Assembly: GCA_021325635.1 (NCBI GenBank)
Contig: JAJPGV010000018.1
Span: forward strand, 94,412 to 158,411
From: Chloroflexota bacterium
GTDB lineage: Bacteria > Chloroflexota > JAJPGV01
DNA length: 64,000 nt
Direction: 5' to 3'
The translations under genes and the position numbers were made by a program. The notes beneath the pieces were generated by a model. The model saw only the letters and a program-made list of their open reading frames with translations. It was not told where the DNA came from and ran no database searches. This document shows, one piece after another, positions 2,068-18,307 of the stretch. The stretch's first letter is position 1. Each line of letters begins with the position of its first letter.

Positions 2068-4572
2068 ATGGCCGCAGCGCACGACTTCAACCTGCCGGGA
2101 GACGAGCCGCACTACACGCCCGACCGCTTCTATCGCGCCGAGCACCTGGTGCTCGAGATTACGGTCGATCCCGACACTCATCGCATCGAGGGTGCAGCCA
2201 GCTACACCCTCCGCCCGGTCAACGCTCCTCTAACTGAGAACCTGCCCGACGTCGTCCTCGACGCCATGGAGATGGAGATCGAAGACGTCTCTCCCGCGCG
2301 CAGCTGGTCTCACGCGGACGGCAAGCTGCTGGTGCAGCCGGACGTGGCGCTGGTGAGCTCGCCGGTTCGCTTTTCGGTCCGCTACAGCGCCGAGCCACGC
2401 AAGGGTATGTACTTCATCGAGCCCGACGAAGGCTATCCCGAGCGCCCCCGACAGATCTGGACTCAGGGGCAGGCGGAAGACACCCGCTACTGGATCCCCA
2501 GCTTCGACTTTCCCAACCAGAAGCTGACGACCGAGGTGATCGCTACCGTTCCCGATCGGCTGACGGTTGTTTCCAACGGCAGGCTGCTGGCGGCGGAGCC
2601 GGCGGGTCCGGGCCGCAAGCGCTGGCACTTCAAGCAGGAAATACCGCATCCGGCTTACCTCATGAGCCTGGCCGCCGGCGAATTCTCCGAGGTCAAGGAT
2701 TCCTGGGAAGGCGTACCGGTGTCGTACTTCGTGCAACCCGGCCGCGAGGACGATGCCCGCCGCGCGTTCGGCAACACGCCGCGGATGATCGACTTCTTTT
2801 CGAAGGCGACGGGCGTTCCCTACCCCTACGCCAAGTACTCGCAGGTTGCTGCCGCGGACTTCATCTACGGCGGCATGGAAAACACCTCGGCCACCACGCA
2901 GACGGAGCGCACGCTGCACGACGAGCGCGCGCACCTCGATTTCTCCAGCGATCCGCTGGTTTCGCATGAGCTTGCCCATCAGTGGTTCGGCGACCTCGTG
3001 ACCTGCCGCGACTGGGGCCACGGCTGGCTGAACGAAAGTTTCGCCACCTACTGCGAGACGCTGTGGCGGGAGCACGATCTTGGGCAGGACGAGTTCCTCT
3101 ATGACCTCTACGGCCTGCTGCAGGCCTACCTGGGGGAGTCGCGCGAACGCTACACCCGGCCTATCGTCACCAACGTCTATCACGACCCATCCGACGTGTT
3201 CGATCGGCACCTGTACGAGAAAGGCGGCCTGGTGCTGCACATGATCCGCCGCCAGCTTGGCGACGCCGCCTGGTGGGCTTCGGTCAAGCACTATCTGGAA
3301 GCGCACCGCGCCGGCAACGTCGTCACCCTCGACTGGCAGCGGGCCATCGAGGACGTCACCGGGCGCAACCTCGAGGAGCTTTTCCAGCAATGGGTCTTTT
3401 CACCGGGCCATCCCGACCTCAAGGTCAGTTACGCCTGGGACGCCAAGTCGCGCCTCGCCAGCGTGACGGTCAAACAGGCCGAGCCGGCCAAAGGGGCGGC
3501 GCCCGGCCGGCTGTTCGCGCTGGACTTCGATCTCGGCTTCGTGCTGGCGGACGGATCCGTCCACACCATTCCCGCTCGGCTCGACACCGTGGAGCGGACG
3601 TTTGCCGTGCACCTGGCGGACGAGCCGCTGCGCGTGCGTTTCGATCCCGGCTTCGGCGTGGCGGTGCGCACGGCCAGCTTCGATCTGCCGCTGCGCATGC
3701 TGCAGCGGCAGCTGGCCGACGACCCGGACGTGCTGTTGCGCATCGACGCCGCCAAGGCGCTTGGCAAGAAGGGTGACCGCCAGTCAGTCGGCTCGTTGGC
3801 GATGGCTTTGCGTGAGGAACGTTTTTGGGGCGTCCAGACGCAGGTGGCCAAGGCCATGGGCGAGGCCAAGACGTCGGCCGCCAAGGATGCGCTGCTGCGG
3901 GCCATGGATTTGCCGCATCCCAAGGCCCGCCGTGGCGTGGTCGAGGCGCTTGGCGCCTTCCGTGAGGCCGATGTGGCGGAGGCGCTGAAAGAGAAGGCGC
4001 GGAAGGGCGACGCCAGCTACCTGGTGGAGGCGGAGACCTTCCGCTCATTGGGCAAGACCCGCCAGGACGGCGTCTACGACGTTCTCCTGTCCGGCCTGGA
4101 TCGGCCTTCCCATGACGAGACCATCCGCCAGGCCGTGTTCGACGGTCTCAAGGAGCTGCGCGACGAGCGCGCCGTCGAGGTGGCCTTGGAATGGGCTCGC
4201 TACGGACGGCCCAACCGGGTGCGAGATGCCGCCATCCGATCGCTGGAACGGCTGGGCGAGAAAGAGTCTCGGGTGGACGACCTGCTCGCGGACGTGCTCG
4301 AGGACCAGCGCATCGCCTCGCGTGGCGCCCGGGCGGCGGCCGTGAACCTGGTGCGCAAGCGTAAGAAGGAGGATGCTATCCCCACGCTGGAGCGCGTGGC
4401 CGAACGCGACGTGGACGAGCGCATCCGCCGCTCAGCGCGAGAAGCGCTGCAGGGCCTCCGGGCCGGCGCCGATCACGACGACGAGCTGCGCCAGCTCCGC
4501 GAGCGCGTCGACGGCCTAGCCGAGGAGAATCGCAAGCTCCGCGACCGCCTCGATAAGCTGGAAGCCCGCTAG
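2068..4572 (+). CDS. pepN: M1-family aminopeptidase N-like metallopeptidase with C-terminal HEAT-like repeats and a coiled-coil tail
   Basis: 834 aa carrying the gluzincin HELAHQWFG...NESFATY motif and a GAMEN-like GGMEN. The C-terminus has alpha-repeats and a coiled coil. Confidence 0.85.
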   Translation: MAAAHDFNLPGDEPHYTPDRFYRAEHLVLEITVDPDTHRIEGAASYTLRPVNAPLTENLPDVVLDAMEMEIEDVSPARSWSHADGKLLVQPDVALVSSPVRFSVRYSAEPRKGMYFIEPDEGYPERPRQIWTQGQAEDTRYWIPSFDFPNQKLTTEVIATVPDRLTVVSNGRLLAAEPAGPGRKRWHFKQEIPHPAYLMSLAAGEFSEVKDSWEGVPVSYFVQPGREDDARRAFGNTPRMIDFFSKATGVPYPYAKYSQVAAADFIYGGMENTSATTQTERTLHDERAHLDFSSDPLVSHELAHQWFGDLVTCRDWGHGWLNESFATYCETLWREHDLGQDEFLYDLYGLLQAYLGESRERYTRPIVTNVYHDPSDVFDRHLYEKGGLVLHMIRRQLGDAAWWASVKHYLEAHRAGNVVTLDWQRAIEDVTGRNLEELFQQWVFSPGHPDLKVSYAWDAKSRLASVTVKQAEPAKGAAPGRLFALDFDLGFVLADGSVHTIPARLDTVERTFAVHLADEPLRVRFDPGFGVAVRTASFDLPLRMLQRQLADDPDVLLRIDAAKALGKKGDRQSVGSLAMALREERFWGVQTQVAKAMGEAKTSAAKDALLRAMDLPHPKARRGVVEALGAFREADVAEALKEKARKGDASYLVEAETFRSLGKTRQDGVYDVLLSGLDRPSHDETIRQAVFDGLKELRDERAVEVALEWARYGRPNRVRDAAIRSLERLGEKESRVDDLLADVLEDQRIASRGARAAAVNLVRKRKKEDAIPTLERVAERDVDERIRRSAREALQGLRAGADHDDELRQLRERVDGLAEENRKLRDRLDKLEAR

Positions 4573-13464: not shown

Positions 13465-13483
13465 GTTCCTTCAACCTGCCAAC

Positions 13484-13503
13484 ATATCGATTTCGGTCGA
13501 TAT
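13484..13503. promoter_or_regulatory. putative ArsR operator (7-6-7 inverted repeat ATATCGA-tttcgg-TCGATAT)
   Basis: Perfect inverted repeat in the arsC/arsR divergent intergenic region. Confidence 0.4.
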
Positions 13504-13676
13504 TTAGCCTCGCACAGCAATCGATGGCTGTCAATATGTTTGCCGCCACCCAGACCGCCGGGGGCACACCGCACTGCTGTTTCGGTGGCGGCATGGGCTC
13601 GTCGCCTGTGAGCTCGTGCCAGCCAGGTTCGAGGATGCGAGCCAACTCCGTTTCGACGTGCTTCAATTCGGTCAAC

Positions 13677-14072
13677 ATGAACGAGTCCTTGCGGGTGATT
13701 CCATGCTGCCCGCCGATCTCACAGGCGGAGCTGTCCTCCGATGAGGCCGAACAGCTGGCCACGACCCTCAAGGCAGTGGCCGACCCGGCCCGCATTCGCC
13801 TTCTCAGCCTGATCCAGGCGCAGCCTCAGGGTGAGGCCTGCGTATGCCACTTGACGGAACCGCTCGGCCTGGGCCAGCCGACCGTGAGCCACCACCTCAG
13901 GGTGCTGGAAGATGCCGGCTTCCTCACGCATGAGCGGCGAGGGCGCTGGGTGTACTACCGCGCCGTGCCCGAACGACTGGCGGCCGTGCGAGATGCCTTC
14001 GCCCCGTCCCCCAAGCGCGCTGCCAGTCATGCAAAGGTCGTGAACGTGAGCTCGAAGGAATTGTCATGCTGA
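13677..14072 (+). CDS. arsR: ArsR/SmtB-family metalloregulator
   Basis: HTH pattern DPARIRLLSLI...CVCHL...GLGQPTVSHHLRVLEDAGF with a Cys pair for As(III) sensing. The start is chosen at ATG 13677; earlier in-frame ATGs exist back to 13446. Confidence 0.7.
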   Translation: MNESLRVIPCCPPISQAELSSDEAEQLATTLKAVADPARIRLLSLIQAQPQGEACVCHLTEPLGLGQPTVSHHLRVLEDAGFLTHERRGRWVYYRAVPERLAAVRDAFAPSPKRAASHAKVVNVSSKELSC

Positions 14073-14282
14073 GCGTGAACCGAAGCATCCCGGCCACACC
14101 TGCCGAGGGTTCCTTCTGGCGTCGTTCCGGTTAACCGCCATCGGCTCGGGATGATCGTTCCGCGAGCGGCTGAGGTGGGTGGCGGTGGTATGTGCGGCAA
14201 CGGCATCCTGGCATCAGAACGTATTGACATCCGAGGGAATTATCCCCTTGACGGCGGTACTGCACAAGCGTATAGTGGGGGT

Positions 14283-15233
14283 ATGTCCAAGGTAGATCGC
14301 AACCAGCCCCGACGATCCACTGCTTCGGAATCGCGCTACACGCTCTTTGAGTTTGACCGTGATTTCCCGGACGATGCTGCCTGCCTTGATTGGCTGGTAG
14401 GCCAGCTCTATCCGAACGGGATTCACTGCCCAAAGTGCGACAAGGTGACGAAGCACTACCGGGACCACAACCGCCCCTCGTATTCGTGTGAATACTGCGG
14501 GCACCGCGAGCACCCTATGGCCGGAACCATCTTTCAGGATTCGGCCACGTCGCTTCGCTTGTGGTTCTACGCGTTCTACCTGATGTCCAGCACTCGCTGC
14601 GGTATCTCCGCGAAACAGCTTGAGCGCGAGCTTGGCGTGACCTACAAGACGGCGTGGCGCATGTTCAACCGCATCCGCTCGCTCATGTATCAGTGCGACG
14701 CGCCGATTACCGAAGGCACCGTCGAGATTGATGAGGCCTACATCGGCGGCAAAGCGCACTGGCGAAGCAGAGGACGCGCTACCGGCATCAAGGGCGGCAT
14801 TAAGGGCAAGACCCAGGTGCTTGGATTCGCGCAACGTGGGGTGGACGGTGAGCCGGGAACCATCACGGCCAAAGTCATGCCCAACAACGTCAAGCGTGCA
14901 GTGCTCAACGAAGTCACAACCAAGGTGCTCGAAAAGGCCATCATCTACACCGATGAGGCCAACGCCTACGAGACGCTGACGAAGAAGGGCTATCACCATC
15001 GGCGCGTTCACCATCGCCAGAACATCTACGTCGATGGGGACGTTCACACGAACACCATCGAAGGGTTTTGGTCGCTGTTGAAGCGCGGAATCAGCGGCGT
15101 CTATCATGGCGTCTCCACCAAGCACCTTCAAACGTACTTGGACGAGTACACCTTCCGCTACAACAACCGGGAGGCTGATGGTAAAGGTATCTTCGACGTG
15201 CTTATGGAGCGGATTGAGAAGGCCCCGGCTTAG
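14283..15233 (+). mobile_element. IS1595-family (ISXO2-like) DDE transposase gene
   Basis: 317 aa with an N-terminal zinc ribbon (CPKCDK...CEYCGH). IS1595 core follows (DEAYIGG...YTDEANAY...TNTIEGFWSLLKRGI...YLDEYTFRYNNR). Element ends were not resolved by eye. Confidence 0.8.
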
Positions 15234-15390
15234 GCTTAGGGGCCTTCTCTGTTGCCTGGCGTAGCGGCTTGAAAAACTCGTCCCGCGTGGGCACTGGTAT
15301 CTCCAATCCGCCAGGCGTGTACTGCACGGGCTCTCCTGGCCGCGTGAGCGGCTTGTTGGGCTTGCGGGCCATCGTTCCTCCAGTCTAGCC

Positions 15391-16179
15391 ATGCTGCTCT
15401 ACCAACATCCCCCCTGTAGCTGGTCCTTGCGGTACCAACGGGCGCTCGATCATTTCGACACGTTCCACAAGACGTTTGAGTGGTTCCGCGAAAGTCACCC
15501 GTGCAAACTGGCTGTAAATCCTCAAAGTGAGCATCCGGGCGGGCTGATCTACGTCAAGGGCATCGACGCGGCACCCTTGCAGCTGAGCGTCATGCTTGGC
15601 GATGCGTTGCAGAACCTTCGCCAGTCCCTTGACCACATCGTTTGGGAATTGTCCATCGGAGCCACTGACAACTCGCGCACTGAGTTCTTCATCTCCGACA
15701 ATGCCAAGCTGTTCCGTACAAGGGGCATGGGGCGGATTGCCCGTGTCACCGACGATGCCAAGGCATTTATCGACGCTGTCCAGCCGTATTACCGAGGGGA
15801 CTTCACCGACAAGGCTCACGCGGAACCCTTGTGGATTCTGGACCGACTTGGAAATGTCGATAAGCACCGTGCCATTCACCTCCTGATGGTCAAGCCGCAC
15901 GGGACTTCCATCAGGTTCATTACGCCTGAGCGCGTTGAGTATTGGGACCTGACGCCGCCTAACATCAAGCTTGAACCTGGCGCAGTAGTCGGGGCTGTCA
16001 CGCAAGAACAACTGGACGCCATTTCCAAGGGAGAAGTGAATATGAATTTCACTATGGAGCTTGAGATAGCGTTCGCCGATGGTCCCGCTAAGGATCGGCT
16101 CGTAAGAGAAGTCTGGGCTGAGCTCAGTGCGGAGGTCGACGCCATCTTGACGCGCCTCTCCTATTGGCTCGTTGAGTAG
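15391..16179 (+). CDS. hypothetical protein with an HEPN-like Rx6H motif (possible abortive-infection / toxin-like cargo)
   Basis: 262 aa. Local GC is lower than the flanks. RLGNVDKH fits the HEPN Rx4-6H nuclease motif. The gene lies directly 3' of the IS transposase. Confidence 0.45.
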   Translation: MLLYQHPPCSWSLRYQRALDHFDTFHKTFEWFRESHPCKLAVNPQSEHPGGLIYVKGIDAAPLQLSVMLGDALQNLRQSLDHIVWELSIGATDNSRTEFFISDNAKLFRTRGMGRIARVTDDAKAFIDAVQPYYRGDFTDKAHAEPLWILDRLGNVDKHRAIHLLMVKPHGTSIRFITPERVEYWDLTPPNIKLEPGAVVGAVTQEQLDAISKGEVNMNFTMELEIAFADGPAKDRLVREVWAELSAEVDAILTRLSYWLVE

Positions 16180-16278
16180 CAAACGCGTCAAGACGCCACC
16201 CCATCGGGGAGGTCGCCTGCTGACATAAGGCTTATTACCCTACCCCTGTACGGTATAGTCCGTAACAGGAATACGTCA

Positions 16279-16602
16279 GTGTCGTATGTATCGGAGGTGA
16301 GTAGGGAGTTCTCGCCTCCGCTCGACCCCGGCATCGCGATAGCTGTGCAGCGGCTATTGGATGCGGGCGTCGAAACGTTTGAGTCTTGCCAGGGTGGCCC
16401 GGAGCACGCATATGCCCAGCCCACCGTAAGATTCCACGGCGAGCGCGCAGAGGGGTTCCGCGCACTCGCCGCAGCAATCCAAGCCGGTCTGCGGGTTACA
16501 GGGTTACGACGCGTTTGGCCGGTTCTTGACGGAGAACCGACCGGACCGTGGTGGGAGCTGACGTTCGCTCCCGAATTGACTATCTCGCCTAGGGCGCCGT
16601 AA
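16279..16602 (+). CDS. hypothetical small protein (107 aa), second cargo gene
   Basis: Co-oriented with the 262-aa gene. No recognisable domain. Confidence 0.3.
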   Translation: MSYVSEVSREFSPPLDPGIAIAVQRLLDAGVETFESCQGGPEHAYAQPTVRFHGERAEGFRALAAAIQAGLRVTGLRRVWPVLDGEPTGPWWELTFAPELTISPRAP

Positions 16603-16987
16603 AGAAGCGCTGGACTAGCCCCAGCGCTGAGCACCGTTCGCAGAGTGGATACCCGCCGGTTCCCCTCTGCGCGTGCCAGGGTCGTATGTTTTGGCCTGCC
16701 GTGCAGTCCGTATTGTTGTGATACACCGACTCCAAGTCGGAGCGGTAGGGTTGGGTGACTATGTTTATCTCCTTTCTGGGATGTAACCCACGCTGACCGG
16801 CTGCTCGCAGTATGACGCGCGGATTGATCGTAATAACGTGACAACCTGCTAGAACTAAGGTTCGATCGCCTGCTAGGAGATTGTACCGACATCAATGGGA
16901 TAATTCCCACATCCGACGATATGTTCAGCCATACTCCGATACATCGATCGGCATCGATATCTCGGCGGTCTAAGAAGGAGTAGTCGC

Positions 16988-17800
16988 ATGGCAGATGTGA
17001 AGCAGGCAGTACGCGAGCGTTACGGCGCCATCGCCGCCAATGTCGCTGAGGGGCAGCGCAATGTTGGCTGTTGTGAGGGCCCGAGCAGTTGCTGCGGGGG
17101 TGGGGAAAAGGACGTCATCAGCAGAGATCTGTACGACCAGGTGCAGATGGGTGACGTGCCGGCGGCGGCCCTGCTGGCCTCGCTGGGATGCGGCAATCCC
17201 ACAGCTCTGGCGCAGCTGCAGCCCGGCGAAACGGTGCTGGACCTTGGCAGTGGCGGTGGCATAGACGTGCTCCTCTCGGCCAAGCGTGTGGGTCCAAGCG
17301 GCTTCGCGTACGGTCTGGACATGACCGACGAGATGCTGTCCCTGGCCGAGCGCAACAGGGCCGAAGCGGGCGCCACCAACGTCGCGTTCCTCAGGGGAGA
17401 CATCGAGGCCATTCCGCTGCCGGATGAGACGATGGACGTGATCATCTCCAACTGCGTGATTAACCTGGCCGCGGACAAGGACAAAGTGCTGGCCGAGGCC
17501 TTCCGCGTCCTGAAGCGCGGTGGCCGGCTGGCGGTGTCGGACGTCGTGGTGCGGGGGCAGGTCCCAGAGGGGCTGCGCCGGCAGATGGAGTCGTGGGTCG
17601 GCTGCATCGCGGGCGCGCTGTCGGAAGACGAATACCGGTCCAAGCTGACCGCGGCGGGATTCGCCGAGGTCGACCTGGAGAGCACGCGCGCATATTCCTT
17701 GGACGACGTGCCCACCGGCGACTGGCAGCCCACCAAGCAGGATCGGGAGCAGCTCGAAGGCAAGTTCGTCAGCGCCTTCGTGCGGGCGTCCAAGCCCTAA
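16988..17800 (+). CDS. arsM: arsenite S-adenosylmethionine methyltransferase
   Basis: Class I SAM-binding motif VLDLGSGGGID. The ArsM/AS3MT-type Cys set is present (N-terminal CC...CC, later LGCGNP and SNCVIN). A low-GC promoter region lies upstream. Confidence 0.85.
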   Translation: MADVKQAVRERYGAIAANVAEGQRNVGCCEGPSSCCGGGEKDVISRDLYDQVQMGDVPAAALLASLGCGNPTALAQLQPGETVLDLGSGGGIDVLLSAKRVGPSGFAYGLDMTDEMLSLAERNRAEAGATNVAFLRGDIEAIPLPDETMDVIISNCVINLAADKDKVLAEAFRVLKRGGRLAVSDVVVRGQVPEGLRRQMESWVGCIAGALSEDEYRSKLTAAGFAEVDLESTRAYSLDDVPTGDWQPTKQDREQLEGKFVSAFVRASKP

Positions 17801-17890: not shown

Positions 17891-18307
17891 ATGGCGGCGA
17901 ACGTGCAGGGCTCGGGCACGAGACAGGATCCGTGGATCTTGAAAACTCCCAGCGGCGGATCGGATTACCAGGCCTTCCGTGACGAGTCGCTGAGCCCGCC
18001 GGCCCTCGTGGTGCAGGTAGGGAAGACCGAGCTGCGCTACCACCTGCGCGCCATCGAAGACCTGCACAGCATGCTCAAGGCGCACGGCGACTGGATGGCG
18101 CTTGGCAGCGCCGACGAGCAGAAACCCGCGCCCGAGGGAAGCGTCGAAGCCTGGGGACGGTCGGAGAGCAACCCGGTTGGTGGCTGGTATGGCCTGAAGA
18201 AGGGTCTCAGGGGCCGCTTCGGTATGTACGTGCCACCGGTCCTCCAAGCTCTCGGTCTAGCCGAGGTCGAGAACCAGCCGCGCAACAATCGCATGCGCGC
18301 GCTCTAG
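17891..18307 (+). CDS. conserved hypothetical protein (138 aa)
   Basis: Well-formed ORF of unknown function. Confidence 0.4.
   Translation: MAANVQGSGTRQDPWILKTPSGGSDYQAFRDESLSPPALVVQVGKTELRYHLRAIEDLHSMLKAHGDWMALGSADEQKPAPEGSVEAWGRSESNPVGGWYGLKKGLRGRFGMYVPPVLQALGLAEVENQPRNNRMRAL

Follow-up and report, generated by a model that had tools for sequence, protein, structure and literature searches.

An IS1595-family element with passenger genes upstream of arsM in a Chloroflexota bacterium, and the variable cargo of its relatives

Between an arsR-type regulator gene and the arsenite methyltransferase gene arsM of a Chloroflexota bacterium (GTDB lineage JAJPGV01) lie a transposase gene and two further genes on the same strand. 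Do the three genes move together and, if so, what are the two that travel with the transposase? A first-pass annotation, made from the letters of the DNA and a list of its open reading frames (ORFs), proposed an insertion sequence (IS) of the IS1595 family that mobilises an abortive-infection (Abi) or toxin-antitoxin (TA) pair: a HEPN-like protein of 262 amino acids (aa) and a 107-aa partner. We analysed a stretch of 64,000 nt, hereafter the window (contig JAJPGV010000018.1, positions 94,412 to 158,411, assembly GCA_021325635.1), and all coordinates below refer to it. The transposase gene and the two ORFs sit between arsR and arsM exactly where that annotation had put them. We consider it very probable that positions 14235-16908 are one intact IS1595-family transporter IS (tIS), that is, an IS with passenger genes, that it split a palindrome upstream of arsM, and that its passengers are independent modules. 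For the 262-aa protein and its relatives (FAM262), a conflict protein is our tentative first choice.

Ends, family and target of the element

The ends were fixed by comparing a 44-nt imperfect inverted repeat in the window with 80 loci retrieved using the transposase. The 44-nt repeat as a whole (14217-14260 and 16883-16926) was rejected as the IS end, as it is made up of a 26-nt repeat, an 8-bp direct duplication and a palindromic target. The element proper is 2,674 bp long and encloses the transposase gene and both cargo ORFs. Its left and right terminal inverted repeats (IRL and IRR) are bordered by identical 8-bp copies of the target (Table 1). The sequence GGGAATTATCCC occurs in the window only in these two repeats, against an expectation of 0.11 occurrences, and the core GGnAAnTATCCC is kept at both ends of the sister elements, where the conserved end sequence of the clade is GG(T/C)AA(T/C)TATCCC. 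Perfect 8-bp duplications were found at the equivalent ends in 53 of 68 sister elements, with 7/8 matches in two more; sister elements with defined ends are 1,595-4,786 bp long. Because the ends and the duplication enclose them, both cargo ORFs would move with the transposase; the ends do not flank the transposase gene alone.

The IS1595 family is marked by a zinc finger, a DDE_Tnp_IS1595 domain and an 8-bp duplication (PMC8101967). The transposase matches PF12762 DDE_Tnp_IS1595 at 3e-40 over profile positions 3-153 of 153, PF12760 Zn_ribbon_IS1595 at 2e-7 (31.2 bits against a cut-off of 25.4, residues 29-74) and NCBIfam NF033547 transpos_IS1595 at 1e-61 (208.6 bits, cut-off 75). Catalytic domain, zinc ribbon, 8-bp duplication and terminal inverted repeats are thus all present, and the Pfam and NCBIfam matches bear out the family assigned in the first pass. 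Taken together, the duplication, the zinc finger and the DDE_Tnp_IS1595 domain make this region a single 2,674-bp unit with the cargo ORFs inside it. Among genome contigs we confirmed 566 relatives of the transposase, the best of them 65% identical, while the closest annotated transposases in plasmid records are less than 40% identical, and no named close relative was found. At these distances we leave the element without a name: it is an unnamed IS1595-family member of an already known type, the tIS.

The transposase gene is probably transcribed from a promoter inside IRL, where a promoter-like site matches 10 of 12 consensus positions; since the site ends 6 nt before the ATG, the messenger would be leaderless. 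The transposase would bind both 26-bp repeats, mobilise everything between them and create the 8-bp duplication on insertion.

What did the element interrupt? If it is excised together with one copy of the duplication, the rebuilt target reads GAACGTATTG-ACATCCGA-CGATATGTTC. This 10-8-10 palindrome stands 71 bp ahead of arsM, and the element split it at its centre. These 71 bp are all that is left of native arsM upstream DNA to the right of the element. Between the divergent arsC and arsR genes there is a second palindrome of this 10-8-10 form, CAACATATCG-ATTTCGGT-CGATATTTAG, and because the rebuilt target resembles this palindrome of the arsC/arsR promoter region, both are probably ArsR operators. 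The insertion would then probably uncouple arsM from its normal ArsR control.

In composition, too, the element stands apart from its surroundings: its GC content is 57.9%, that of the window 65.9%, and no lower value was found among 307 equal-length sliding windows, so the low local GC content remarked on in the first pass extends to the whole element. The description of 16600-16987 as AT-rich intergenic DNA is too simple, as that interval contains a conserved 48-aa ORF, IRR, one copy of the duplication and the 71 bp upstream of arsM. The non-coding interior beside the right end (16736-16882) showed no similarity to other loci, the folding of 16603-16882 was unremarkable (z-score -1.24), and no Rfam match to a non-coding RNA was found in the element. 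A search of the window found no further copies of the element.

Passenger modules

The passenger DNA appears to consist of independent modules and not of one two-gene system: FAM262 would be the signature cargo of this transposase clade, the 107-aa protein with a 48-aa neighbour a separate module typical of phages and mobile elements, and a 56-aa antisense ORF part of the IS backbone of the clade. The 56-aa and 48-aa ORFs, both on the minus strand, were missing from the first-pass annotation.

The competing proposal casts the 262-aa protein as a HEPN ribonuclease toxin and its 107-aa neighbour as the antitoxin or MNT-like partner, the two forming an IS-mobilised Abi or TA pair. The genes are indeed adjacent and co-oriented within the IS, and a genuine DUF4145/HEPN protein occupies the same slot in one sister element. 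The motif cited for the HEPN fold, RLGNVDKH, is also present in the window protein, at residues 152-159, but R152 is not conserved in its relatives, and Rx6H (R152 to H159) therefore fails as a HEPN motif. An alternative Rx4H, NLRSALDH (R77-H82), occurs in most of FAM262, in the C-terminal third of the second long helix. Here R77 reaches a conservation of 90% or more among members while H82 stays below 90%, and R77 is followed by a small residue (S, Q, C or A), whereas the HEPN motif Rx4-6H typically has N, D or H after the arginine and lies at the end of helix 3 (PMC3710099).

Profile and fold comparisons point the same way. None of 57 aligned FAM262 members has a Pfam match at E<=0.1, in a collection that includes the HEPN_* and Abi families; the 262-aa protein has no NCBIfam or PHROGs match; sequence-profile searches of the PDB with FAM262 found nothing; and hhalign of FAM262 against a DUF4145/HEPN protein gave a probability of 0.2%. 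With PADLOC and Foldseek equally without a match (details below), the HEPN, Abi or TA assignment finds support in none of Pfam, PADLOC, NCBIfam, PHROGs, PDB profiles, Foldseek and hhalign. The 262-aa protein is not a demonstrable HEPN ribonuclease; a very remote relationship is formally conceivable, though unsupported.

The distribution of the two genes also bears on the pair. In the 144 loci that we fetched, FAM262 is present in 40 and the 107-aa family in 53, and the sole overlap is the element described here. The 107-aa gene is absent from all loci fetched with the transposase, including the sister elements that carry FAM262. Since the 107-aa family is moreover well conserved, borne by phages and equipped with a partner of its own, as described below, we regard a HEPN toxin pair as very improbable, and we return to independent modules as the basis for what follows.

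The proposal that the cargo proteins belong to no described family has, on the other hand, stood up. A word-based search with the 262-aa protein found only two distant relatives. The size of the family became apparent when a small profile was run in a full HMMER scan: 13,472 cluster representatives score at E<=1e-3 (at least 13,000 clusters at 50% identity), of which 6,333 reach E<=1e-10. The near-invariant residues are R17, A18, H21, R77, D81, F99, P100, Q131, P132, D157, H159 and R160. The AlphaFold2 (AF2) model of the 262-aa protein (pLDDT 90.9, pTM 0.87) predicts a long helix, a beta hairpin, a second long helix, a small helical insert, a beta sheet and a long C-terminal helix. We also examined a TIR-like stretch, RxxLDxL...FPIF, which matches the RUN1 TIR domain at E 1.6, and judged it to be chance, as the predicted fold is not TIR-like. 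The weak match covers FAM262 residues ~75-103 (window 15613-15699, LRxxLDHxxWxL...TEFPIF) and corresponds in the plant TIR domain to the region around the catalytic-glutamate helix.

The 107-aa protein belongs to a family with 1,770 homologues, of which the best 120 listed are 65-81% identical and none has a Pfam domain. It has no Pfam, NCBIfam or PADLOC match of its own, and PHROGs gave just 0.05. Its AF2 model is a small alpha/beta domain (pLDDT 86) for which no relative was found in the PDB by sequence or by fold; in BFVD it matches an uncultured Caudovirales protein at 48% identity and a TM-score of 0.78. The family is present in 43 IMG/VR viral contigs. The protein has no match in INPHARED phage records and one partial match in plasmid records. 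Elsewhere its genes lie in prophage-like regions beside integrases, Cro-like helix-turn-helix regulators, DNA methyltransferases, HNH endonucleases and DnaB.

A convergent Cys-rich ORF is, to judge by gene order, the conserved partner of this family. An ORF of ~50 aa lies directly downstream and convergent in four fetched loci (L001-L004) and in ~22 of the 43 viral loci; the copy in the window has no Pfam match, and no other conserved neighbour of the 107-aa gene was found in the viral contigs. The module also occurs near other IS1595-like or IS1-like transposase genes (among them those of L116, L096, L126 and L002), so that it counts as a recurring passenger by itself. At L002 5649-9364 (also in L003 and L004) it lies within a 3.7-kb element with 32-nt inverted repeats matching at 31/32 positions, together with a gene for a 314-aa IS1-like or IS1595-like transposase and several small ORFs. 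At L142 3319-4289 (also L143 and L144), where there is no IS, a FAM262 gene is immediately preceded on the same strand by an ORF for a 57-aa Cys-rich homologue. We rejected the Cys-rich ORF as a general partner of FAM262, because among the loci covered the association is confined to L142-L144, one gene on three contigs.

The 56-aa ORF has GGAGG 5 nt upstream of its ATG and no Pfam match. With tblastn we located it in ~15 sister elements, at the same position and in the same orientation, and in 8 further loci, there upstream of FAM262. The core IPVPTRxxFxxxLRKxxR recurs as the C-terminal tail of the protease cargo on the minus strand of sister elements: the ORF is homologous to the last ~30 residues of the trypsin-like cargo in L067, L011, L028, L062, L068, L075 and L077, the motif common to both being IPxPTxxxFxxxLxKxxR. 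In L037 and L081 the homologue is a separate ORF after the cargo gene. The 56-aa ORF may be a module encoded by the backbone or a recombination scar.

Cargo variation across the clade

FAM262 is the commonest passenger of this clade and its signature. Of the 80 related loci, 29 have a FAM262 gene after the transposase gene, and the cargo of 52 well-bounded elements comprised FAM262 in 25, a trypsin-like protease in 12, an N-terminal nucleophile (Ntn)/proteasome-like protein in 4 and other genes in 11. The strand of the FAM262 cargo depends on the lineage: plus in Actinomycetota and Chloroflexota, minus in Acidobacteriaceae. The family is not tied to the element: on long contigs, 3 of 6 FAM262 genes have an IS1595 transposase gene no more than 2.3 kb away, and among the metagenome loci long enough to judge, such a gene is present in 13 of 28 and absent from 15 of 28.

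Cargo and transposase differ sharply in their divergence. Transposases that are 75-85% identical carry FAM262 proteins that are 25-32% identical, and over 267 pairs the mean identity is 55.7% for the transposase and 29.1% for FAM262. The DNA of the elements is ~80% identical over nt 1-1155, shows no detectable similarity in the cargo region, and matches again over the last 25 nt, the right repeat. The FAM262 protein of the window can be aligned with sister cargo only over residues ~10-165. Such divergence speaks for a cassette that diversifies fast or is often exchanged, and not for a conserved accessory of transposition.

An accessory role, in which FAM262 would be a transposition regulator, a target-selection factor or a target-immunity factor instead of independent cargo, is for the same reason improbable. 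It would be consistent with the frequency of FAM262 beside this transposase clade, with a cargo type that follows the transposase lineage at 73% identity and above, and with the extra DNA found in every element of the clade, the smallest being 1,595 bp. An accessory would hardly be expected, however, to flip its orientation between lineages, to be replaced in other lineages by proteases, Ntn-like hydrolases or a DUF4145 protein, or to lie far from any IS1595 transposase gene in about half of the members that can be judged.

Some of the genes that take the place of FAM262 in sister elements are of the defence type. The trypsin-like (Trypsin_2-like) cargo matches the PADLOC models PDC-S45 (7e-14) and LmuA (6e-5). 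PDC-S45 is a candidate, not known to be a validated system. A zinc-ribbon and DUF4145 protein in the same slot of L037 matches PD-T7-4 (2e-7), which is RAZR, an abortive-infection HEPN ribonuclease (PMC13017515).

Several sister loci add detail on the cargo slot. Four of them (L014, L043, L051 and L069) have cargo of ~225-345 aa starting MTVCIA..., with one weak Pfam Proteasome match (4e-7), which suggests passengers of the Ntn-hydrolase type. At L086 2971-4852 a tandem pair of FAM262 genes lies beside an oppositely oriented IS1595 transposase gene, and a public gene call on the minus strand there (3052-3924) is probably wrong. In L034 (6085-6914) the FAM262 cargo falls into two overlapping ORFs, probably a frameshifted pseudogene; the transposase of this element is 95% identical to that of L020. 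Two larger elements, L049 119-4904 (4.8 kb) and L089 799-4868 (4.1 kb), have perfect 8-bp duplications and several passenger ORFs each; the cargo capacity of the clade is therefore well above one gene.

A role of the cargo in defence or conflict in general is possible. For FAM262, our tentative first choice is a stand-alone conflict protein, an effector of the abortive-infection or defence type with a variable sensor domain. We favour it because the family is exchanged or diversified far faster than the transposase, because about half of its relatives function apart from any transposase, and because sister elements carry single genes of the defence type in the same slot.

The passengers might instead serve the mobile element, as anti-defence, superinfection-exclusion or addiction genes, and not defend the host. 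We think this unlikely, though it has points in its favour: the 107-aa and Cys-rich module is of a kind usual in the early or accessory regions of phages and recurs beside the other transposase genes listed above, and hypervariability suits any arms race, offensive or defensive. Viral contigs, however, seldom contain FAM262 (2 loci in a pattern-limited scan, the 107-aa family having 43), the sister cargo resembles host defence effectors, and no match to a known anti-defence family was found for the passengers.

A broader form of the conflict-protein reading can be put forward, although we hold it to be rather doubtful. The clade, which is common in uncultured soil Acidobacteriota, Chloroflexota and Actinomycetota, would be a minimal vehicle of a swappable, hypervariable immune cassette of one gene; FAM262 would be a new, very widespread family of stand-alone anti-phage effectors of the abortive-infection type, with a conserved catalytic N-terminal and a diversifying sensor C-terminal domain; and the 107-aa and 48-aa proteins would form a second conflict module.

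A number of observations weigh against our interpretation, in whole or in part. PADLOC found no match for the 262-aa protein, for four FAM262 representatives or for the 107-aa protein, and Foldseek of the FAM262 model against the PDB found no fold relative (best E 0.44); because both came back empty, a defence role of FAM262 draws on its position and evolutionary pattern. FAM262 copies outside the IS are not visibly in defence islands, and a lineage-specific accessory function might also explain why cargo type tracks transposase lineage. Just two similar palindromes underlie the operator assignment, and an exact search of metagenomes for the uninterrupted target site gave 0 hits. Only one copy of the element is known, its mobility being read from its sequence. 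Finally, the subgroup label ISNwi1/ISNwi1+ is tentative: the ends, GGGAATTATCC (GGGAATTAT...), and the 2,674 bp of the element are compatible with this ISfinder subgroup, which has ends ggnnatTAT, an 8-bp duplication and, passengers included, a length of 1.75-4.75 kb, and the element may belong to it.

Taken alone, the locus is ordinary; it is the clade-level pattern and the large uncharacterised family that deserve attention. They expose a large and coherent clade of small IS elements in soil bacteria with one or a few passenger genes between fixed ends. If the passengers are immune or counter-immune genes, a minimal IS would be an under-appreciated route by which they spread, and FAM262 would be worth experiments; if they are not, the element is an ordinary passenger-carrying IS with hypothetical genes. 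In a limited search of the literature, neither FAM262 nor the hypervariable cargo slot was found described.

Arsenic genes and known systems

Table 1. Features of the element and its surroundings (window coordinates)
Feature	Position	Strand	Description
Similar 10-8-10 palindrome	13480-13507		Divergent arsC/arsR intergenic region; putative ArsR operator
ArsR-type regulator	~13677-14072		HTH_5 1e-13
Left half-site of palindromic target	14217-14226		GAACGTATTG; read from sequence
Target-site duplication, left copy	14227-14234		ACATCCGA; identical to 16909-16916
IRL, left terminal inverted repeat	14235-14260	+	GGGAATTATCCCCTTGACGGCGGTAC; 23/26 bases equal the reverse complement of 16883-16908
Promoter-like site	14248-14276	+	TTGACG, 17 nt, TATAGT; partly within IRL
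IS1595-family transposase	14283-15233	+	316 aa; N-terminal zinc ribbon and DDE domain
Conserved 56-aa ORF	15202-15372	-	Core IPVPTRDEFFxxLRxA; antisense, between transposase and 262-aa genes
262-aa cargo protein, FAM262	15391-16179	+	Conserved ~165-aa N-terminal domain, hypervariable C-terminal domain
107-aa cargo protein	16279-16602	+	Small alpha/beta family of phages and other mobile elements
48-aa Cys-rich ORF	16589-16735	-	VYHNNTDC...GTGGYPLCERC; convergent, overlaps 3' end of 107-aa gene by 14 nt
Non-coding interior beside right end	16736-16882		51% GC counting IRR
IRR, right terminal inverted repeat	16883-16908	-	26 nt, 23/26 matching IRL
Target-site duplication, right copy	16909-16916		ACATCCGA; identical to left copy
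Right half-site of palindromic target	16917-16926		CGATATGTTC
Arsenite methyltransferase arsM	16988-17800		NF008823 1e-101, 340 bits against cut-off 263

Further to the left of the ArsR-type regulator, Pfam and NCBIfam matches identify an ArsC-type phosphatase and an MIP channel. With these two, the regulator and arsM close together, the term arsenic island used in the first pass is a fair description. The cluster is interrupted by a recently inserted, probably active transposon at the putative arsM operator, and methylation may be mis-regulated as a result. Directly downstream of arsM, window 17891-18307 encodes a DUF6855 protein (3e-66), a family of unknown function that may be linked to arsenic metabolism.

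Among known systems, the closest are the IS1595-family transporter IS elements with passenger genes described by Siguier, Gagnevin and Chandler (2009), as cited in PMC3129680 and PMC7986276. The element shares with them a single transposase with zinc ribbon and DDE_Tnp_IS1595 domain, terminal repeats, an 8-bp duplication and passengers unrelated to transposition. It differs in having four non-transposase ORFs in at least two independent modules, and its clade differs in having a hypervariable cargo cassette.

Like the HEPN ribonucleases of Abi systems and of RAZR/PD-T7-4 (PMC3710099, PMC13017515), FAM262 is a stand-alone protein of ~260 aa on a mobile element, with conserved Arg, His and Asp on helices and a variable second domain, and a RAZR-like protein fills its slot in the sister L037. 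Unlike them, FAM262 has no profile or fold match, RLGNVDKH is not conserved in it and its Rx4H is incomplete, and its predicted architecture does not look like a plain four-helix bundle. The comparison with PDC-S45 and LmuA-type protease effectors in PADLOC applies to the sister elements, whose trypsin-like cargo matches them and sits in the slot of FAM262, whereas the cargo of the window matches neither.

Tn7-like elements and other larger transposons also carry defence and accessory cargo, with swappable conflict genes between fixed ends. The element described here differs from these in its scale: it is a minimal IS, in which one transposase gene accompanies one or a few cargo genes.

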